DNA of 16,218 bases from an uncultured archaeon (GTDB lineage: Archaea; Asgardarchaeota; Thorarchaeia; Thorarchaeales; Thorarchaeaceae), in NCBI GenBank assembly GCA_964631415.1, contig CAZVZC010000042.1:1-16218 (forward strand), written 5' to 3'. The stretch's first letter is position 1; the number at the start of each line of letters is the position of its first letter. Shown here piece after piece: positions 3,837-14,412 of this stretch. Position numbers and translations under genes: made by a program. The notes beneath the pieces are model-generated. The model was not told the DNA's origin and ran no database searches. It was given only the letters and a program-made list of their open reading frames with translations.

Positions 3837-4595
3837 TCAAGTTTCACTCTGAGGCAGCGTCATGACAGTCTTGCCGGGAGGCACAGTGATGTCGGTATCG
3901 AAGTAAAGTCCAATCATTATGCTCTCGATGTCTATCCCGCCAAGATCATCATGAGGTCCACTGCTGATCTCGATCTCGGGAGTCCCAGACCGTCCTTTCT
4001 TGACATCGTAAGTCAAGTAGGCAGCAGAAACCGCCGCAACGTCAAACCCCTCTCCATCTGCGCTTGGAATCATCTTCACATTCAGGTTCGGGCCGCTGTC
4101 TATCCACTCACCCTCTTCTGTGAATGTGCATGTTGCCTTGAGGAGTGGTTTTCCTCCTCTACTCGTGGTCGCGACAAGCCGATCGCCGGTCCATTTCATT
4201 GAGATCTTCGCCAACTTGCGGGGATAGCCCCAAACCTCGCGCCCTGCTGCAAGAGCGACATCGGTATCCACGTAGTCATGAGCGAAGTAGACGCCGACCT
4301 CCTCCTGCCCAGTCAAATGATTGTCGAACACGCACTGAACGAGGAGAGCGGACTCCATGAATGTCCCGGTTTCTTTGCACGGTTGTTCTGCAAACATGAG
4401 TCCTGCAAGCTTCATGTCTGATGGCCGGAAAAAGCTGGGAAGGAGTTTCTGAAGGCTCTCGTCAGATGTGTTGAAGAGGGCCAAGAGCATCTTCGAGCCC
4501 ACATAATGATATGTGGGCTTCGGATAAAGTGGGCTTAGAAGAGGAGTGCTGAATCTTGATGTCATGGTCTTCACGACGACTCTGTGTGTGGTCAC
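3837..4595 (-). CDS. Acetoacetate decarboxylase (ADC)-superfamily protein with the catalytic Lys replaced by Arg
   Basis: STPLLSPLYP, F-x-ES, YVDTDVALAAGREVWGYPRKLA and NVKMIPSADG align with clostridial Adc. GTG start; alternative ATG at 4565. Confidence 0.85.
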   Translation of the reverse strand: MTTHRVVVKTMTSRFSTPLLSPLYPKPTYHYVGSKMLLALFNTSDESLQKLLPSFFRPSDMKLAGLMFAEQPCKETGTFMESALLVQCVFDNHLTGQEEVGVYFAHDYVDTDVALAAGREVWGYPRKLAKISMKWTGDRLVATTSRGGKPLLKATCTFTEEGEWIDSGPNLNVKMIPSADGEGFDVAAVSAAYLTYDVKKGRSGTPEIEISSGPHDDLGGIDIESIMIGLYFDTDITVPPGKTVMTLPQSET

Positions 4596-8304: not shown

Positions 8305-10128
8305 TCACGAGAGATTGGCCAGTCCTAGCTCTTGCAGTCTTCCCTTCGACGGCATGCCCGTGCGTCGGTCCCAGCCGCGATACTGATACCACTTCTTGAG
8401 CTGGGCTTCAACGTCTGGCACGTGACCCTCAGTCGGTCCCTGTAGGGGTTGGAGCACGATGTCCGGCAGCTTCTCATTCTTGGGATCGTAACCGAGCTTG
8501 AGATTCATGAGACGCATCAGAGTGAATATCCTTTCGCCAGCTCGCTTGACATCCTCGACTGTGTAGGTCCAACCTGTGACGAGTGTCAGCAGTTCTGCCA
8601 GTTCATTTGAAGATACGGGATAGAAGTTGCACATGAGTGCAGAGTTGGTGACACATCTGAAGTCCTGCTGTTTGGCAACTAGATCAGCTTCGTTTGCGAA
8701 CCTGTCTCTGCTGTCTATTTCAAACCCTTCGTCACCTAGGCCCATCTGCACGTTGTACATGTCTGCAGTCATGTGACAAGCTCCTCTGGGGGAGGTCATG
8801 TATGTAGTAGCCATGCCTGAGAAGCCTCGGACGTCATGTTGAGGGAGCTCAAGACCATTGACCTGTGCTGCCAAGTTGGCCACACCGAATTTTCTGCCGA
8901 AAGCTAGGCTTCCTTCTGCCATGAGGTTCCCCACACCTTCCCTCTTGGCTATCTTGTGGAGCAGGGCCATAGCGGAGTCTATCTCTCCCCATTCGGGCTT
9001 TATGCCGTCCAAGTCCTTAGCTGTGATCTTGCCCTGCTTGAACAGGTAGTACGCAAATGCAATTGTGTTGCCGCCAGAGATAGTATCTATCCCTAGAAGG
9101 TCAAGCTGTTTGTTCGCATATGCGAGTGCCTCTACGTTGTTGTTGAGCAGGAGAGAACCCATCGTCCCTGTTACTTCGAGTTCCGGCCCCGCGAAGCGCC
9201 CCGTTGCGTACTTGCCTTCCTTGATCTCAATCACTCGGCCGCATCCGATTGGACAACGGAAACAGGCTGTCTTCCCGACAAGAATCTTCTCCTTCACTGT
9301 TGTGCCGCTGATGTTGTAGGTGTCAAAGTCTGACACTGAGTAGTAGCCCATTGGGAACGAACCATACATGGCTGAGGCCATGTCTACGAAGCCTGCCGTT
9401 CCAAGTTCAGAGTACATGATGAAGGTCGGTGCGTTCTTCTTGTCAACGTTCAGCTCCTTACAGCGTTCCCCAAGCTTCTCTTCCTCAGCCACGGGTATCT
9501 TCCTGTCAGAGCCGTTGACAACGATTGCCTTCAGCTTCTTGGACCCCATCAAGGCACCCAATCCGGTTCTCCCGGCCGCCCTGAAGTGGTCTACTATTAC
9601 GCTTGCGAATTTGACCAAGTTCTCGCCTGCAATCCCTATCCTGGCAACACCTGCATTCTTGAATCCGGTTTCTGTCTTCAGGGTCTCCCAGGTCTTCTCG
9701 GTATCGCTGCCCCAGAGATGAGCAGCGTCTTTGATCTCGGCCCTGGAATCATTCACAAGTAGGTACACAGGCTTCTTCGACTGACCGGTGATGACAATAC
9801 CGTCATAGCCGGCGAACTTGATGTCTGCTCCCAAGTGCCCTCCAAAGGTGCTGTGAGCCCACAGACCGGTGAGTGGTGATTTTGCACAGGCTGACGCCTT
9901 GCTCCCGGTTGGTACCATTGTACCGCAGAATGGGCCGGTCATGAGTATCAGTGGGTTACTTGGTCCGAGCGGGTCTGTCTTCGCATCGACCATGTTGTAG
10001 AGCATCCTGCATGCAAGACCCGCACCTCCGATGAAGCTTCGAGCCATCTCAGAATCGAGCGGCGCTGTGGATACAGACCCTGAGGTCAGGTTCACCTGTA
10101 GAATCTTGCCTCTGTAACCTTTCATCAT
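8305..10128 (-). CDS. aor: Tungsten-dependent aldehyde:ferredoxin oxidoreductase (AOR/WOR family)
   Basis: GYRGKILQVNL, KSPLTG, GRTGLGALMGSKKLKAI, [4Fe-4S] ligands CFRCPIGC plus RGACH, pterin motif DLLGIDTIS, GPELE. Strong RBS AGGAGGGTGA at 10129-10138. Confidence 0.93.
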   Translation of the reverse strand: MMKGYRGKILQVNLTSGSVSTAPLDSEMARSFIGGAGLACRMLYNMVDAKTDPLGPSNPLILMTGPFCGTMVPTGSKASACAKSPLTGLWAHSTFGGHLGADIKFAGYDGIVITGQSKKPVYLLVNDSRAEIKDAAHLWGSDTEKTWETLKTETGFKNAGVARIGIAGENLVKFASVIVDHFRAAGRTGLGALMGSKKLKAIVVNGSDRKIPVAEEEKLGERCKELNVDKKNAPTFIMYSELGTAGFVDMASAMYGSFPMGYYSVSDFDTYNISGTTVKEKILVGKTACFRCPIGCGRVIEIKEGKYATGRFAGPELEVTGTMGSLLLNNNVEALAYANKQLDLLGIDTISGGNTIAFAYYLFKQGKITAKDLDGIKPEWGEIDSAMALLHKIAKREGVGNLMAEGSLAFGRKFGVANLAAQVNGLELPQHDVRGFSGMATTYMTSPRGACHMTADMYNVQMGLGDEGFEIDSRDRFANEADLVAKQQDFRCVTNSALMCNFYPVSSNELAELLTLVTGWTYTVEDVKRAGERIFTLMRLMNLKLGYDPKNEKLPDIVLQPLQGPTEGHVPDVEAQLKKWYQYRGWDRRTGMPSKGRLQELGLANLS

Positions 10129-10138
10129 TCACCCTCCT

Positions 10139-11314
10139 TCAGAAATCGATAGGCTTTCCCAGATACATGTACTCGTACATCTTGCGGATGCGATCACTGT
10201 CTGTATCACGCGGGTTCATGGTTATGCTGGAGTCCATCATAGCGTATTGCACAAGCTTGTCGAGTCCCTTCTCGAAGCTCTCCTTAGAAACCCCCGCCTG
10301 TTTCAGGCTGAGTGGGAATCCAACGGTCTTCTGCAACTGCCTGATCTTTTTGGCGAATGCTCTCGCGGCCAGTTCAGCATCAGTTCTCTTCACCCCCAGC
10401 AGGGAACCGAGCTCGGCATACTGCATTGCAGCAGTGGGATTGCCCTTGCAGTTGTATTCAATTGTGATAGGTAGGGACAGGCCGACCGCAAGACCATGTT
10501 GTACTCTGAGCACTGAACCTAAGCTGTGACCGAGTGAGTGACCCAGTGCAACTTGCGAGTTGCTGAATGACATCCCTGCAAGGTCAGCTGCGACCAGCAT
10601 CTTCTCCCTTGCCTGAAGGTCGTCAAGGTTCTGCACAGACTTTGGCAACCACTCAAAGACCATCTTGACCGCTTGAAGCGTGCAGGCATCCGAGAAGTCG
10701 TTCTTCCAAACAGAAACATATGCCTCCACAGCATGAGTGAGCGCGTCCATGCCCGTGTAAGCTGTGAGATCTTTCGGAAGTCCCTTGACAAATGCAGGCT
10801 CAAGTATCGCCAAGTCCGGACACATCTCCGGGTTGTTTGTGGCGAATTTCCTACCTGTTTCGTCTTCTCTAATCACTATTGCTTTTGTGGCCTCGGAACC
10901 TGTCCCTGCCGTGGTGGGAATGCACACCAGCTTTGCCTTGTGCCGCAGGTCGAGTGGTTGGAGTGGTGTGACTGCCTCAAGAAGAATATCTGGATGTTCA
11001 TAGAGGACCCAGGCTGCTTTTGCGGTGTCCATAACGCTCCCTCCACCCACAGCTATGATTGTGTCAGCGCCGTATCTCCTCATTGCCTCCGCCGCCTCCT
11101 TTACCGTCGAGACTCTCGGGTCCGGTTCCGCGTTGTCCCATACTGCGACTGACCACTGACGAGCACTGAGGATTTTGTCTATCTTCTCTGGATAGCCAAA
11201 CTTGGCAACGATCTTGTCAGTCACTATGAAAGCATGGGAGCCGACAAGCTGTTCGAGTTCACTCAGTGCATCTTCGCCAAAAACAACCCTAGGAACTGCA
11301 AACCACCAAACCAT
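10139..11314 (-). CDS. Iron-containing (type III) alcohol dehydrogenase, butanol-dehydrogenase/AdhE-ADH-like, probably NAD(H)-dependent
   Basis: GGGSVMDTAK, PTTAGTGSE and the Fe ligands GMDALTHAVE, HSLGH and HGLA. Asp in VTD suggests NAD preference. The ATG at 11314 (MVWWFAVP) is preferred over the GTG at 11347. Confidence 0.93.
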   Translation of the reverse strand: MVWWFAVPRVVFGEDALSELEQLVGSHAFIVTDKIVAKFGYPEKIDKILSARQWSVAVWDNAEPDPRVSTVKEAAEAMRRYGADTIIAVGGGSVMDTAKAAWVLYEHPDILLEAVTPLQPLDLRHKAKLVCIPTTAGTGSEATKAIVIREDETGRKFATNNPEMCPDLAILEPAFVKGLPKDLTAYTGMDALTHAVEAYVSVWKNDFSDACTLQAVKMVFEWLPKSVQNLDDLQAREKMLVAADLAGMSFSNSQVALGHSLGHSLGSVLRVQHGLAVGLSLPITIEYNCKGNPTAAMQYAELGSLLGVKRTDAELAARAFAKKIRQLQKTVGFPLSLKQAGVSKESFEKGLDKLVQYAMMDSSITMNPRDTDSDRIRKMYEYMYLGKPIDF

Positions 11315-11455
11315 TGGACACCGACCACCTTTTCCAACAGAGAACACGGATTGTCTCTTTTGACAGTCTTTGTGTCTGGCATTCGGCGAACCTGCTTATA
11401 TCTAGTACACCACTTCGGTCAATGGCACACAGTGGTTGAGGGTTACCGCGACCTG

Positions 11456-12550
11456 TCACTTCTTGCCTTTGACAACGCCGGGCGCCGCTTCAAGCACCTT
11501 TACTGCCTCAGCCACAATCTCGGTGACGAGGCTCTTTACACTCGGAAGGTCTTTGACCCTGCCGACCACTTCGCCTCCGAACATGAGCGCAGTTTCAGGT
11601 TTCCCATCTATAAGGTCATCAAAGCCGGCTCGTTCTAGATGGAGTATGTCCTCATTGGAGTCAAGAGGTTCTCCGAGGTAGAAACCCGGCAAGTCGCGGA
11701 GCGTCTGCTGGACTATCTGTTCTGCCCTCTTGTTTCGAAGGAATCTCATAGGACCGAAGAGGCCTCTGCCTACAAGTGTGTGACGTTCCTCTCGATCGAT
11801 GATTGCCTGCTTCCAAGTCGGCTCGAAGTCACTCTCCTTCGTCGCGATGAACCTTGTTCCCATCTGAATCCCTTTTGCACCCAGACAGAGGGCTGCTGCG
11901 AGAGTTTTGCCATCACAGAAGCCGCCTGCTGCGACAACAGGAGTCTTGACCGCACGCGCGACAGCCGGCACAAGGACCATCGAGTGGACGGGCTCCCACG
12001 AAACATGTGCTCCTCCTTCATGACCTGACGCTATAATGACATCTGCTCCGGCTGCCTCCGCCTTGCGTGCATGGTATACAGACGGGACTACGTGAAACCA
12101 GAGGAGACCGTGTTCCTTGATTCTCGCCCATGGTTTGGGGTTTCCTGCAGAAGTGATGATCACCCTGAGCCGCTTCTCGATGTCAGAGTCGTTCTCTCGA
12201 GCCTCGATGGTCTGCTTCACAAACATCTCTGAAGCCACAGTGAACTCCGAGGCGACCGGTACATTGACTCCGAACACTCCTCCAGATCCACGAGTTCCCT
12301 TTGCCACTGCCTCAATCGACTTCTGAAGGATTACCTCAGGTGGGTCTGTTCCAAACAGCCTGACCGCATCTATCGGAGCAGCGTCCGGTATCATTGTGGC
12401 CGCCATCCCAATGCTGCTTATGACTCCCAGAGCACCGGCGTTGGACACTGCAGTTGCCAGTGCTTCAGTCTTATACGGGCCCATGCCTCCTTGCAGTATT
12501 GGGTGCTGGATGCCGAGGATGTCGCACAGCTCCGTGTGGATGCATTTCAT
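11456..12550 (-). CDS. FabK/nitronate monooxygenase-family FMN oxidoreductase (probable enoyl reductase-like)
   Basis: HPILQGGMG, LATAVSNAGALG, SAGNP, ASGHEGGAH (catalytic His), PVVAAGGFCDG, GIQMGTRF. Confidence 0.88.
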   Translation of the reverse strand: MKCIHTELCDILGIQHPILQGGMGPYKTEALATAVSNAGALGVISSIGMAATMIPDAAPIDAVRLFGTDPPEVILQKSIEAVAKGTRGSGGVFGVNVPVASEFTVASEMFVKQTIEARENDSDIEKRLRVIITSAGNPKPWARIKEHGLLWFHVVPSVYHARKAEAAGADVIIASGHEGGAHVSWEPVHSMVLVPAVARAVKTPVVAAGGFCDGKTLAAALCLGAKGIQMGTRFIATKESDFEPTWKQAIIDREERHTLVGRGLFGPMRFLRNKRAEQIVQQTLRDLPGFYLGEPLDSNEDILHLERAGFDDLIDGKPETALMFGGEVVGRVKDLPSVKSLVTEIVAEAVKVLEAAPGVVKGKK

Positions 12551-12562
12551 GACCTAGCCGAT

Positions 12563-12586
12563 TCAGACGCCCAGATTTAAGTCTGA
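12563..12586 (-). promoter_or_regulatory. TATA box of the FabK-like gene embedded in an inverted repeat TCAGAC-N12-GTCTGA
   Basis: Minus-strand CTTAAAT at 12575-12581 lies ~28 bp upstream of the ATG at 12550. Inverted-repeat arms at 12563-12568 and 12581-12586. Confidence 0.45.
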
Positions 12587-12735
12587 CACATGAACGATAA
12601 GAGTCAAGAAACAGACCGCTGTCAATCCTGTCAGAGCTTCTGCCTTTGTGATTCTCATCCTGCATTCTCTCCTCTATCTGCCTCGTTGTGTACTAAGTGG
12701 TTGTCATCTAGGCATTTCCGGAATCCATGCTCGGT

Positions 12736-12993
12736 TCATGTCCTGTCCTGAGTCGATCGATCTCGAAGTTTCCTGCACGCCAGCCAGACGACAATCGTGA
12801 TGAGGTCTAGGATGGGGAGGTAGGGAAACGCTAGAAGCCGCATCCAGAGGGGGTCCAAGTTGGTGACTAGCGTCCACGCTATCAAAGACATGAGTAGCTC
12901 GACTGAAACAATGATTTTGAGATAGTAGCAAATACGTTCGGTTTTCGTTGATACATCCCCCTCAGCAGTTCTGTTTCCGAGAAGGCAAATCAA
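12736..12993 (-). CDS. Small two-helix membrane protein, hypothetical (85 aa)
   Basis: Two hydrophobic helices (ICYYLKIIVSVELLMSLIAWTLV and LLAFPYLPILDLITIVVWLAC) followed by a basic tail RKLRDR. TTG start 8 nt after a GGTGA RBS. The ORF is open from the ATG at 13044. Confidence 0.5.
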   Translation of the reverse strand: MICLLGNRTAEGDVSTKTERICYYLKIIVSVELLMSLIAWTLVTNLDPLWMRLLAFPYLPILDLITIVVWLACRKLRDRSTQDRT

Positions 12994-13272
12994 CCTTTTG
13001 TTCACCGAAATGATTGGCAGTCTTGAACTCAAACTATGGTTCATCTCATATCTGCAGTGCGCTTCGAGCTACCAACGCATCTTGCTGCGGCCCATGAGCT
13101 GCAATCTCACGTATGCAGTGAACTCACCACTGGCGTTCCACAGGTGAACTTCGTGAGCACTGAAACTGGTGACGGTGACGCCTTCTCATTTGCGTCAAGC
13201 TCGTTCCGGGGTCCTGTTAAAGGCTTTGGAACTACACTGTGCAAGCCTGAGCCACACGAATAGGTGACGGCC

Positions 13273-13695
13273 CTACTTCTCGTCTGGGAACTTCGTTGGA
13301 ATCTTGGTCGCTGTGGCAACAAGCTCAGCTGCGGCCTTTGTATACCTCATGACCTTGCCCATGTCACCCTTCAGTGCGAACTTGCGTTGCATCAATCCCT
13401 TAATGGGGTCTATCTGCCCTGCGAGAAGCAGCCTCCAGTTTGCCAGCGTTCCCGAATAGACAAAAGCGGCCTGCTCATCCGGTTTCGCCATTCTTACCTT
13501 CCTGCAGTCACCGTGCCACAGGTCGATGTAGCCACGCAAGGGCTGCTTGATGGTCTTGCCATCCGCGTCAATCTGGAAAACAAAGTCACCTTCCCAGTCT
13601 TTTGCTGCATCCTTGTATGCCGCATTCTTATTCAGTATCTCTTGGAACTTGAGAAGCCATGCTTCTGAAAAGAAGTCTATCTTCTTTTGGCTCAT
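13273..13695 (-). CDS. Stand-alone SCP2 (sterol carrier protein 2) lipid-binding protein
   Basis: FFSEAW...YKDAAKDWEGDFVF...YIDLWHGDC...W..LLAGQIDPIKGLMQRKFALKGDMGKVMRY matches the SCP2 C-terminal signature (G-x-I-D-P...L-K-G-D). Confidence 0.88.
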   Translation of the reverse strand: MSQKKIDFFSEAWLLKFQEILNKNAAYKDAAKDWEGDFVFQIDADGKTIKQPLRGYIDLWHGDCRKVRMAKPDEQAAFVYSGTLANWRLLLAGQIDPIKGLMQRKFALKGDMGKVMRYTKAAAELVATATKIPTKFPDEK

Positions 13696-13866: not shown

Positions 13867-14412
13867 ATGGCCCCCGAGCCCCCAGCTAGCCCCCTCTTGA
13901 CCAGTTTTCTCGAGTTGGCCTCAGTATCTGAAGAAATAGGCAGAGGAACGAGTGGTGTCGACTTCCTAGTCCTTGAGAACAATGATGAGATGTACGGCTA
14001 CGAACAGACCGAGCTTGAGAAGAGGTTTTGTGTGAGTGTTGACAATGCGATCGAATCCGTCGAAGAGAGCGAATCCGCGGCCGTCCGGGAGAGCTCACAG
14101 ATCATATGCATAGCACTTGTGGCCTTGGTGAGAGCACAGCCCGCCGCTGACGCATATCGTGCTCGAATGTTCCGTTACGCTACGGATTGGGGGTCCGAAA
14201 TATCATGGGTGTCAGCCTGCTCGAACAGGTTACTGCACATGGTCCGAAAGCTGCTTGGCCAGATGACTCAAGAAACGAGGACCGCGATTGCGCGCGTTAT
14301 CCCTAATGAGGTGAGAAACGCTTCTATCCACTCCTACTTCTTTGTGGAGTCTGACAGACACGCAGAGGAGTCGTTGAGGGTCAGTGAGATTCTTGGCATC
14401 GCTCAAAGCTGA
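13867..14412 (+). CDS. Hypothetical protein, predicted alpha-helical (181 aa)
   Basis: Only long ORF in the gap, divergent from SCP2, with protein-like composition and an acidic N-terminal half. No recognisable motif. Confidence 0.7.
   Translation: MAPEPPASPLLTSFLELASVSEEIGRGTSGVDFLVLENNDEMYGYEQTELEKRFCVSVDNAIESVEESESAAVRESSQIICIALVALVRAQPAADAYRARMFRYATDWGSEISWVSACSNRLLHMVRKLLGQMTQETRTAIARVIPNEVRNASIHSYFFVESDRHAEESLRVSEILGIAQS

Follow-up and report, generated by a model that had tools for sequence, protein, structure and literature searches.

An SCP2-fold protein gene that accompanies alcohol dehydrogenase and aldehyde:ferredoxin oxidoreductase genes in Thorarchaeota and other archaea

Introduction

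Why does a gene for a small protein of the SCP2 fold stand near the genes for an alcohol dehydrogenase (ADH) and an aldehyde:ferredoxin oxidoreductase (AOR) in an archaeal genome, and how many of the neighbouring genes belong to the same system? The question arises from a stretch of 16,218 nucleotides (hereafter, the window; contig CAZVZC010000042.1 of assembly GCA_964631415.1) from an uncultured archaeon, whose relatives are metagenome-assembled genomes (MAGs) of Candidatus Thorarchaeota (Asgard archaea). The assembly consists of 81 contigs with a total of 2.16 Mb and is 85% complete, and the G+C content of the window is ~52%. An earlier note on this DNA had described five consecutive minus-strand genes, for SCP2, a small membrane protein, a FabK-like reductase, an iron-type ADH (Fe-ADH), and a tungsten-dependent AOR, as a candidate module of carrier-assisted lipid redox chemistry. 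Pfam matches were obtained for four of them, i.e., SCP2, a flavoprotein, Fe-ADH, and AOR, but the fifth is an orphan open reading frame (ORF).

The combination of AOR and ADH is a known two-step route, and the SCP2 protein family is best known from eukaryotic lipid trafficking. Gene neighbourhoods across archaea indicate that the conserved core is SCP2 plus an ADH, with an aldehyde-oxidising enzyme, either AOR or aldehyde dehydrogenase (ALDH), as a frequent third member. We propose, with moderate confidence, that SCP2, as a ligand-binding partner, assists ADH and AOR in interconverting an alcohol, aldehyde, and acid of poor solubility.

Conservation of SCP2 with an alcohol dehydrogenase

When one genome of each prokaryotic species was searched with an SCP2 profile, 491 relatives were returned; the best 80 loci were counted, comprising 54 of the Thorarchaeota type and 26 others. 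The latter 26 span Bathyarchaeia, Thermoplasmata, Methanomassiliicoccales, Geocrenenecus, a MAG labelled as Nitrososphaerales, Baldrarchaeota, and Thermoprotei. A co-oriented Fe-ADH gene lies within 300 nt after the SCP2 stop codon in 21 of them, and AOR is the next gene in 11 of these 21; the three loci without Fe-ADH carry an opposite-strand zinc-dependent ADH (Zn-ADH) gene right after SCP2, together with an ALDH gene. Because of these counts at distant loci, we regard SCP2 and an alcohol dehydrogenase as the core. Closer to the source organism, the ADH-AOR pair is kept at all 23 loci with same-family AOR orthologs, where the usual order is SCP2-flavoprotein-ADH-AOR, and at 6 of 7 loci from elsewhere in the phylum, outside the family, where AOR is 41-46% identical, with SCP2 present at 3 of these 6; ADH-AOR directly follows SCP2 at 4 of the 54 Thorarchaeota-type loci. 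The synteny of SCP2, Fe-ADH, and AOR, for which the earlier note had proposed a test, was found from genus to genus within Thorarchaeota, in further families of Asgard archaea, and outside the Asgard group.

Gene fusions join the same partners. A Hodarchaeota MAG encodes, on one contig only, a protein of 554 aa in which SCP2 forms the N-terminal and Fe-ADH the C-terminal part; a free SCP2 gene precedes the fusion gene, and AOR is located 2 kb away. Among longer proteins, SCP2 was also found fused to a LuxC-type (acyl-CoA reductase family) fragment. No fused form of SCP2 was detected by single-sequence search, and the SCP2 profile was required to find them.

A second SCP2 operon is present in the source genome itself (contig 24; L137:4323-7513, plus strand). 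This tight operon, with a 4-nt overlap, encodes a thiamine pyrophosphate (TPP) enzyme of 574 aa that resembles acetolactate synthases and 2-hydroxyacyl-CoA lyases (ALS/HACL-like), a Zn-ADH of 337 aa belonging to the medium-chain dehydrogenase/reductase type, and an SCP2 of 151 aa that is 23% identical to the SCP2 of the window. Five other Thorarchaeota genomes also have this operon, and an ortholog of the TPP enzyme occurs in only 7 of 41 relatives. The nearest solved relatives of the TPP enzyme, with similar scores, are BbmA, 2-hydroxyacyl-CoA lyases/synthases, and acetolactate synthases, and it passes no NCBIfam cut-off. It is 61-62% identical to a TPP enzyme whose gene is convergent to SCP2-Fe-ADH at eight Bathyarchaeia-type loci, and likewise to one of the same subfamily that is encoded near an ADH-AOR pair at one Asgard locus (L033). 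Since SCP2 pairs with ADHs of two unrelated folds, it would seem to serve the substrate rather than be a subunit of one particular enzyme.

Identities of SCP2, the alcohol dehydrogenase, and the oxidoreductase

The SCP2-fold protein scores 44 bits with its Pfam model (cut-off 21.3) and matches PDB entries 1wfr and 2cx7 at E ~1e-20 (profile comparison to 1wfr, E = 3.6e-28), and its AlphaFold model, with a pLDDT of 94.6, gives a TM-score of 0.84-0.90 to 2cx7. Its closest solved structure is that of the Thermus thermophilus HB8 protein TT1886 (1WFR, 2CX7), which is probably the product of TTHA0401; the two are 34% identical and have the motifs WEG and DLWHGxCR in common, and WEG and DLxHGxC are invariant in the family. 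The next structural neighbours are eukaryotic lipid-binding SCP2s, UbiJ, and the C-domains of alkylsulfatases. SCP2 is 50-56% identical to its Bathyarchaeia and Thermoplasmata orthologs, a conservation that exceeds that of ADH (37-45%, Asgard versus Bathyarchaeia). SCP2 folds are known carriers of hydrophobic ligands, and the fold suggests that the window protein may bind such a ligand as well. A complex prediction for ADH and SCP2 scored 0.00 against a mark of 0.32, a result that is classed as "no answer" and that we used neither way.

In several genera of Thorarchaeota (L014/L043, L018/L084, L029/L080, L041, and L074), tandem SCP2 duplicates precede the genes for the flavoprotein, ADH, and AOR. 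The copies are 47-58% and 61-68% identical to the SCP2 of the window, and the upstream copy of L029 has a stop codon.

Fe-ADH has Pfam scores of 161.4 bits (PF00465) and 168.3 bits (PF25137), and among solved structures it is closest to the ADH domain of AdhE (3zdr, 272 bits). Its start is most likely the ATG at 11314, because orthologs align from this methionine and a conserved GAGGTGG lies ~10 nt upstream; an alternative start, the GTG at 11347, was rejected on the same grounds. Across 23 orthologs, the GGGS motif (G90-G91-G92-S93), D190, H259, H263, and H273 are invariant; from knowledge of the family, we take D190 and the histidines to be metal ligands and GGGS to be the dinucleotide-binding motif. 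This enzyme was the single Fe-ADH match found in the 85%-complete source genome.

AOR matches both of its Pfam models over its full length (PF02730, 254.8 bits, cut-off 29.8; PF01314, 365.1 bits, cut-off 27), with Pyrococcus furiosus AOR (1aor, 418.6 bits) as the best solved relative. The cluster motif CFRCPIGC aligns with CYACPIGC of 1aor, so that CxxCxxxC and the fourth cysteine are conserved, and so are the equivalents of Glu313 and His448 (P. furiosus numbering); following what is established for 1aor, we assume that the four cysteines ligate a [4Fe-4S] cluster and that the Glu/His pair lies near the metal. The enzyme is assigned to the single-subunit type because neither an iron-sulfur nor a flavin adenine dinucleotide subunit gene is adjacent, and membership of the family suggests tungsten as its metal. 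The source genome encodes at least 8 AOR paralogs, and amid these many paralogs the AOR of the window has one clear ortholog, with 56-95% identity, in 23 same-family genomes. As the earlier note had reported, ADH and AOR are separated by 10 nt containing a strong ribosome-binding site: AGGAGG is read between the ADH stop codon and the AOR ATG. Orthologous pairs have gaps of ~10-22 nt, and AOR, judging from the 10-nt gap and AGGAGG, is translationally coupled to Fe-ADH.

A fusion of 1221 aa, composed of a complete AOR and an AMP-binding acyl-CoA-ligase domain, is encoded in a same-genus genome, G001 (L129:2081-5746, minus strand), and open-frame lengths point to the same fusion in G002, G005, G017, and G020. 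A divergent SCP2 paralog (L129:6198-6635) adjoins it. A single chain of this kind could turn aldehyde into acid and then into acyl-CoA; the fusion was not detected in the 85%-complete assembly of the window.

Proposed function and the case for short-chain substrates

According to the enzyme families, ADH would interconvert alcohol and aldehyde with NAD(P), and AOR would interconvert aldehyde and carboxylic acid with ferredoxin. Because of these family identities and the coupling of the two genes, the net route from alcohol through aldehyde to acid would be free of coenzyme A (CoA) and ATP. The hydrophobic pocket of SCP2 would take up a poorly soluble or reactive alcohol or aldehyde and pass the ligand to the dehydrogenase. 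The direction that we favour is oxidative and catabolic, with alcohol being converted to acid, then to acyl-CoA, which would enter beta-oxidation.

Four lines of evidence lead us to favour catabolism of a lipid-like or poorly soluble compound. First, a beta-oxidation set, encoding acyl-CoA dehydrogenase, enoyl-CoA hydratase, 3-hydroxyacyl-CoA dehydrogenase, a DUF35 protein, and thiolase, lies divergently upstream of the module at 4 Bathyarchaeia loci. Second, the AOR::acyl-CoA-ligase fusion stands beside an SCP2 gene, and third, the source genome encodes acyl-CoA dehydrogenases, a FadB-like fusion, and acyl-CoA ligases. Fourth, the T. thermophilus operon TTHA0401-TTHA0400, for a hypothetical protein and a zinc-binding dehydrogenase, is repressed by FadR and de-repressed in a fadR deletion (PMC5597230). 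That the substrate is a long-chain lipid is a more tentative suggestion, with gene neighbours that point both to beta-oxidation and to TPP-dependent aldehyde handling.

Several observations weigh against this proposal. The ADH domains of AdhE, to which the ADH of the window is closest, act on short-chain substrates such as ethanol, and P. furiosus AOR, the closest relative of the AOR, acts mainly on amino-acid-derived aldehydes. The SCP2 family has the invariant polar residues E35, D58, H61, C64, R117, and E124, which are unusual for a non-specific lipid carrier. The solved Thermus homolog is reported to have a pocket roughly half as large as that of human SCP2 (PMC11533139), and therefore sterol-sized or very long ligands are disfavoured. 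The recurrent TPP enzyme could simply supply aldehydes derived from 2-oxoacids. In addition, the whole ~16-kb neighbourhood, including genes for LplA, an ABC transporter, an acetoacetate-decarboxylase-fold protein, PAP2, and an M20 peptidase, is syntenic within the family, which makes family-level synteny weak evidence and the distant comparisons the informative ones; and SCP2 appears to be separately transcribed in the source genus, as described below.

Most of these observations fit another explanation, that ADH and AOR are a pair for fermentative or amino-acid-derived aldehydes (acetaldehyde, or the branched and aromatic aldehydes that peptide fermentation yields from 2-oxoacids, as in Pyrococcus), in which SCP2 acts as a buffer for a reactive aldehyde or as a stabiliser of the dehydrogenase, unconnected with lipids. 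The relationships of both enzymes, the ALS/HACL-like TPP enzyme that accompanies SCP2-ADH at the eight Bathyarchaeia-type loci, at L033, and in the second operon, the M20 peptidase gene that is convergent to AOR across the whole family, the small pocket reported for the Thermus SCP2, and the invariant polar residues of the SCP2 family are all consistent with it. However, a small soluble substrate such as ethanol would hardly call for a carrier, the SCP2 fold is typical of carriers of hydrophobic ligands, and the SCP2 family is linked to beta-oxidation genes, acyl-CoA-ligase fusions, and LuxC-type fusions, with the Thermus counterpart belonging to the FadR fatty-acid regulon. We consider the short-chain explanation rather unlikely, although it is the strongest of the alternatives.

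The flavoprotein and the five-gene operon

The flavoprotein matches PF03060 over its full length with 182.1 bits (cut-off 28), and FabK (7l00, ~148 bits) is its closest relative of solved structure, the histidine of the GG(x)H motif being aligned. The reductase described earlier as FabK-like is thus correctly placed in the FabK/PA1024 branch; however, it reaches only 187.4 bits with the FabK model TIGR03151, far under the cut-off of 453.1. Compared with FabK, it has insertions totalling ~45 residues, the largest of which (~20 residues) follows residue 45. Acyl carrier protein (ACP; PF00550) had no match in the 85%-complete source genome, whereas 11 of 14 control genomes were matched; this agrees with the view that the organism belongs to a class that mostly has no ACP-based fatty acid synthesis. 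Because of the score below the cut-off, the insertions, and the lack of a detected ACP, we conclude that the flavoprotein is not a FabK in the strict sense. Its identity as a class I nitronate monooxygenase (NMO) was rejected too, as its nearest relatives are the FabK/PA1024 group instead; an O2-dependent NMO feeding ADH and AOR was likewise discarded, given that its need for O2 accords poorly with an O2-sensitive AOR. A homolog search returned only Thorarchaeota-type orthologs with generic names. Reduction of the C=C bond of a 2-enal or 2-enoyl compound, or re-oxidation of NAD(P)H, is a possible role.

Would this enzyme, and the small membrane protein, complete a five-gene operon for a lipid redox pathway, in which the flavoprotein acts on the enoyl bond of the substrate shared with ADH and AOR and the membrane protein participates? 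The order SCP2-flavoprotein-ADH-AOR prevails at most Thorarchaeota-type loci; at 33 of the 54, no more than 300 nt lie between SCP2 and the flavoprotein gene. The flavoprotein has a single-copy ortholog in 22 of 24 family genomes with 70-86% identity, a conservation higher than that of ADH and AOR; the catalytic histidine of FabK is aligned, and with ACP not found, a non-ACP enoyl substrate is conceivable. Nevertheless, the flavoprotein occurs at none of the 26 SCP2 loci outside Thorarchaeota. It is missing from the cluster in the Thorarchaeota genomes G007, G009, G012, and G022; the gene is located elsewhere in G007 and G009, on other contigs in G024 and G035, and in a second copy in G011. 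No constant partner of the relocated gene was found among its neighbours, which are a gene resembling phosphoenolpyruvate (PEP) synthase in one genus and otherwise genes for a helicase, RidA, TrmB, or TnpB. A block of ~3.3 kb separates it from SCP2 at 8 of the 54 loci, and it has a promoter-like box of its own. By these comparisons, the flavoprotein is a dispensable, lineage-specific Thorarchaeota neighbour with its own promoter-like element, and the claim that it is a member of the module is weakened.

In the genus with the PEP-synthase-like neighbour (g7; L119:3220-7154 and L123:2235-6153, both minus strand), the relocated flavoprotein gene directly precedes a gene of ~900 aa with PPDK_N and PEP-utilizers mobile domains, and a gene for a DUF7065/DUF7064 protein comes next; the overlap of the flavoprotein and PEP-synthase-like genes in L119 is 4 nt. 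The ~3.3-kb block (L062 and L081, with the same >300-nt gap at L047, L053, L059, L069, L071, and L078) encodes at L062:6448-9726 a radical SAM/SPASM protein, two small unknown proteins, and a methyltransferase-TPR protein, with a matching ORF layout in L081, and looks like a peptide-modification cassette inserted into the cluster.

The small membrane protein fared worse. Its ORF has two hydrophobic stretches, but it lies within ~560 nt of extra DNA that accounts for the difference between the 722-nt SCP2-flavoprotein gap of the window and the ~160-nt gap in the same-genus genomes G003 and G001. The ORF had no Pfam or NCBIfam match, and tblastn against ~130 related loci gave no match either; the codon score of the ORF, 0.14, compares with 0.29-0.55 for the genes of the window. 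Since it has no homolog, a weak codon score, and a location in unshared DNA, it is unsupported as a gene, and on these sequence criteria the "small membrane protein" does not belong to the system. The extra DNA is single-copy in the source genome, takes the place of a terminator-like hairpin seen in same-genus genomes, has no Rfam match, and bears no likeness to the radical-SAM/methyltransferase insert or to any of the ~130 loci.

The arrangement of the genes also argues against one transcription unit. "Five consecutive genes" overstates the cohesion of the cluster because the spacing is uneven: ADH and AOR are 10 nt apart, the flavoprotein gene and ADH 141 nt, and SCP2 and the flavoprotein gene 722 nt. 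The ACTAGATATAAG block ahead of ADH is invariant in four same-genus genomes, with diverging flanks, and the GTCAGACTTAAATC block before the flavoprotein ATG is kept in an alignment of three same-genus genomes; both resemble archaeal TATA boxes and may function as promoters. In same-genus genomes, a G+C-rich hairpin with a T-run comes after the SCP2 stop codon, as in a terminator. These conserved boxes and the hairpin therefore suggest three likely transcription units, namely SCP2, the flavoprotein, and ADH-AOR (Table 1). With long gaps, internal promoter-like boxes, a terminator-like hairpin in relatives, an unconserved ORF, and a relocating flavoprotein that scores far below FabK, we judge it improbable that the five-gene module of the earlier note is a single operon.

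Table 1. Features of the SCP2-flavoprotein-ADH-AOR region (window coordinates)
Feature	Position	Strand	Basis or remark
AOR family, single-subunit Pyrococcus type, 607 aa	8305..10128	-	PF02730 + PF01314
ADH-AOR spacer, 10 nt, with AGGAGG ribosome-binding site	10129..10138	-	Direct sequence reading
Iron-type alcohol dehydrogenase, 391 aa from ATG at 11314	10139..11314	-	PF00465 + PF25137
Shine-Dalgarno-like AGGTGG before ADH ATG	11325..11330	-	Kept in four same-genus genomes
TATA-like box ACTAGATATAAG, candidate internal promoter for ADH-AOR	11395..11406	-	~80 nt upstream of ADH ATG
FMN-dependent NAD(P)H oxidoreductase, NMO/FabK/PA1024 family, 364 aa	11456..12550	-	PF03060
TTAAAT-type box, candidate promoter, near-leaderless transcript	12575..12582	-	~25-30 nt upstream of flavoprotein ATG
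Extra intergenic DNA, ~560 nt, holding orphan ORF 12736-13044	12680..13250		Alignment with G003, G001
SCP2-fold protein, Thermus TT1886 type, 140 aa	13273..13695	-	PF02036
FMN, flavin mononucleotide.

Isoprenoid alcohols as possible substrates, and inherited synteny as an unlikely explanation

A more specific version of the SCP2-assisted ADH/AOR route gives the flavoprotein a place. The Thorarchaeota set could serve to break down, without oxygen, isoprenoid alcohols or other lipid alcohols of the allylic or branched kind (phytol, geranylgeraniol, or alcohols derived from archaeal lipids), as a counterpart of the SCP2-dependent peroxisomal route for phytol and phytanic acid in animals. SCP2 would carry the alcohol, ADH and AOR would convert it to a 2-enoic acid, and the flavoprotein would saturate the conjugated C2=C3 bond; the AOR::acyl-CoA-ligase fusion, observed in relatives, would activate the product, and the operon of the HACL-like TPP enzyme, Zn-ADH, and SCP2 would shorten it by one carbon. 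This scheme is speculative, and we attach only a low probability to it.

Least probable of all is that the functional link is limited to ADH and AOR, with SCP2 and the flavoprotein adjacent through inherited synteny only: the synteny of the entire neighbourhood and the long gaps with separate promoter-like boxes would agree with this, but SCP2-ADH adjacency in several archaeal lineages at 50-56% SCP2 identity, the SCP2::Fe-ADH fusion, and the independent pairing of SCP2 with Zn-ADH do not.

Relation to known systems

SCP2-assisted interconversion by ADH and AOR, the explanation that we favour, has precedents for its parts. As in the two-enzyme AOR and ADH route exemplified by P. furiosus AOR, by which anaerobes reduce acids to alcohols or oxidise ethanol, a single-subunit AOR with all cofactor-ligand residues is coupled to an NAD(P)-type ADH in a CoA-free route, but the pair in the window is habitually joined by SCP2, and in Thorarchaeota by the flavoprotein. 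The small protein and zinc-binding dehydrogenase of TTHA0401-TTHA0400 parallel the Zn-ADH-SCP2 operon of the source genome, whereas the Thermus system is bacterial and aerobic, uses a Zn-ADH, and lacks AOR. With FabK (7l00, 2z6i) and PA1024 (2gjl), the latter an NADH:quinone oxidoreductase, the flavoprotein shares the FMN TIM-barrel family; unlike FabK, it carries the insertions and low model score noted above, in a genome without detected ACP. The SCP-2-like domain of human MFE-2 (1ikt) offers a further likeness, in that a lipid-metabolic oxidoreductase carries an SCP2 ligand-binding module, as indicated by a fold match and by the archaeal SCP2::Fe-ADH fusion; however, MFE-2 has other dehydrogenase folds, acts in peroxisomal acyl-CoA beta-oxidation, and is only ~20% identical in sequence.

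A literature search yielded no paper that connects SCP2 with AOR or ADH in archaea, in accordance with the earlier note, whose author knew of no characterised system of this kind. A dedicated SCP2-fold partner that travels with two unrelated ADH folds across Asgard archaea, Bathyarchaeia, and Thermoplasmata is absent from the searchable literature. If SCP2 does deliver poorly soluble alcohols or aldehydes, it would explain how abundant sediment archaea use wax-, lipid-, or isoprenoid-derived alcohols without oxygen and without CoA activation, and SCP2 would gain a defined prokaryotic function among the closest relatives of eukaryotes. With only three soluble proteins, the module is directly testable.

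Other features of the neighbourhood

Divergent from SCP2, an ORF of 181 aa without a Pfam match is located at 13867-14412 (plus strand), and the same divergent position in the Thorarchaeota loci L012 and L048 is occupied by an ORF 34-40% identical to it. The acetoacetate-decarboxylase-fold protein (PF06314, 128 bits) is encoded at 3837-4595 (minus strand) and is conserved in the family neighbourhood.

A second type of AOR fusion was observed in genome G025, from the same taxonomic order as the source organism, where a protein of 840 aa (L130:2177-4699, plus strand) joins a complete AOR-family enzyme to a domain of the orotidine monophosphate decarboxylase/HUMPS family; an electron transfer flavoprotein alpha-like gene lies upstream. 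This fusion may couple formaldehyde release of the hexulose-phosphate-synthase kind to a formaldehyde-oxidising AOR.

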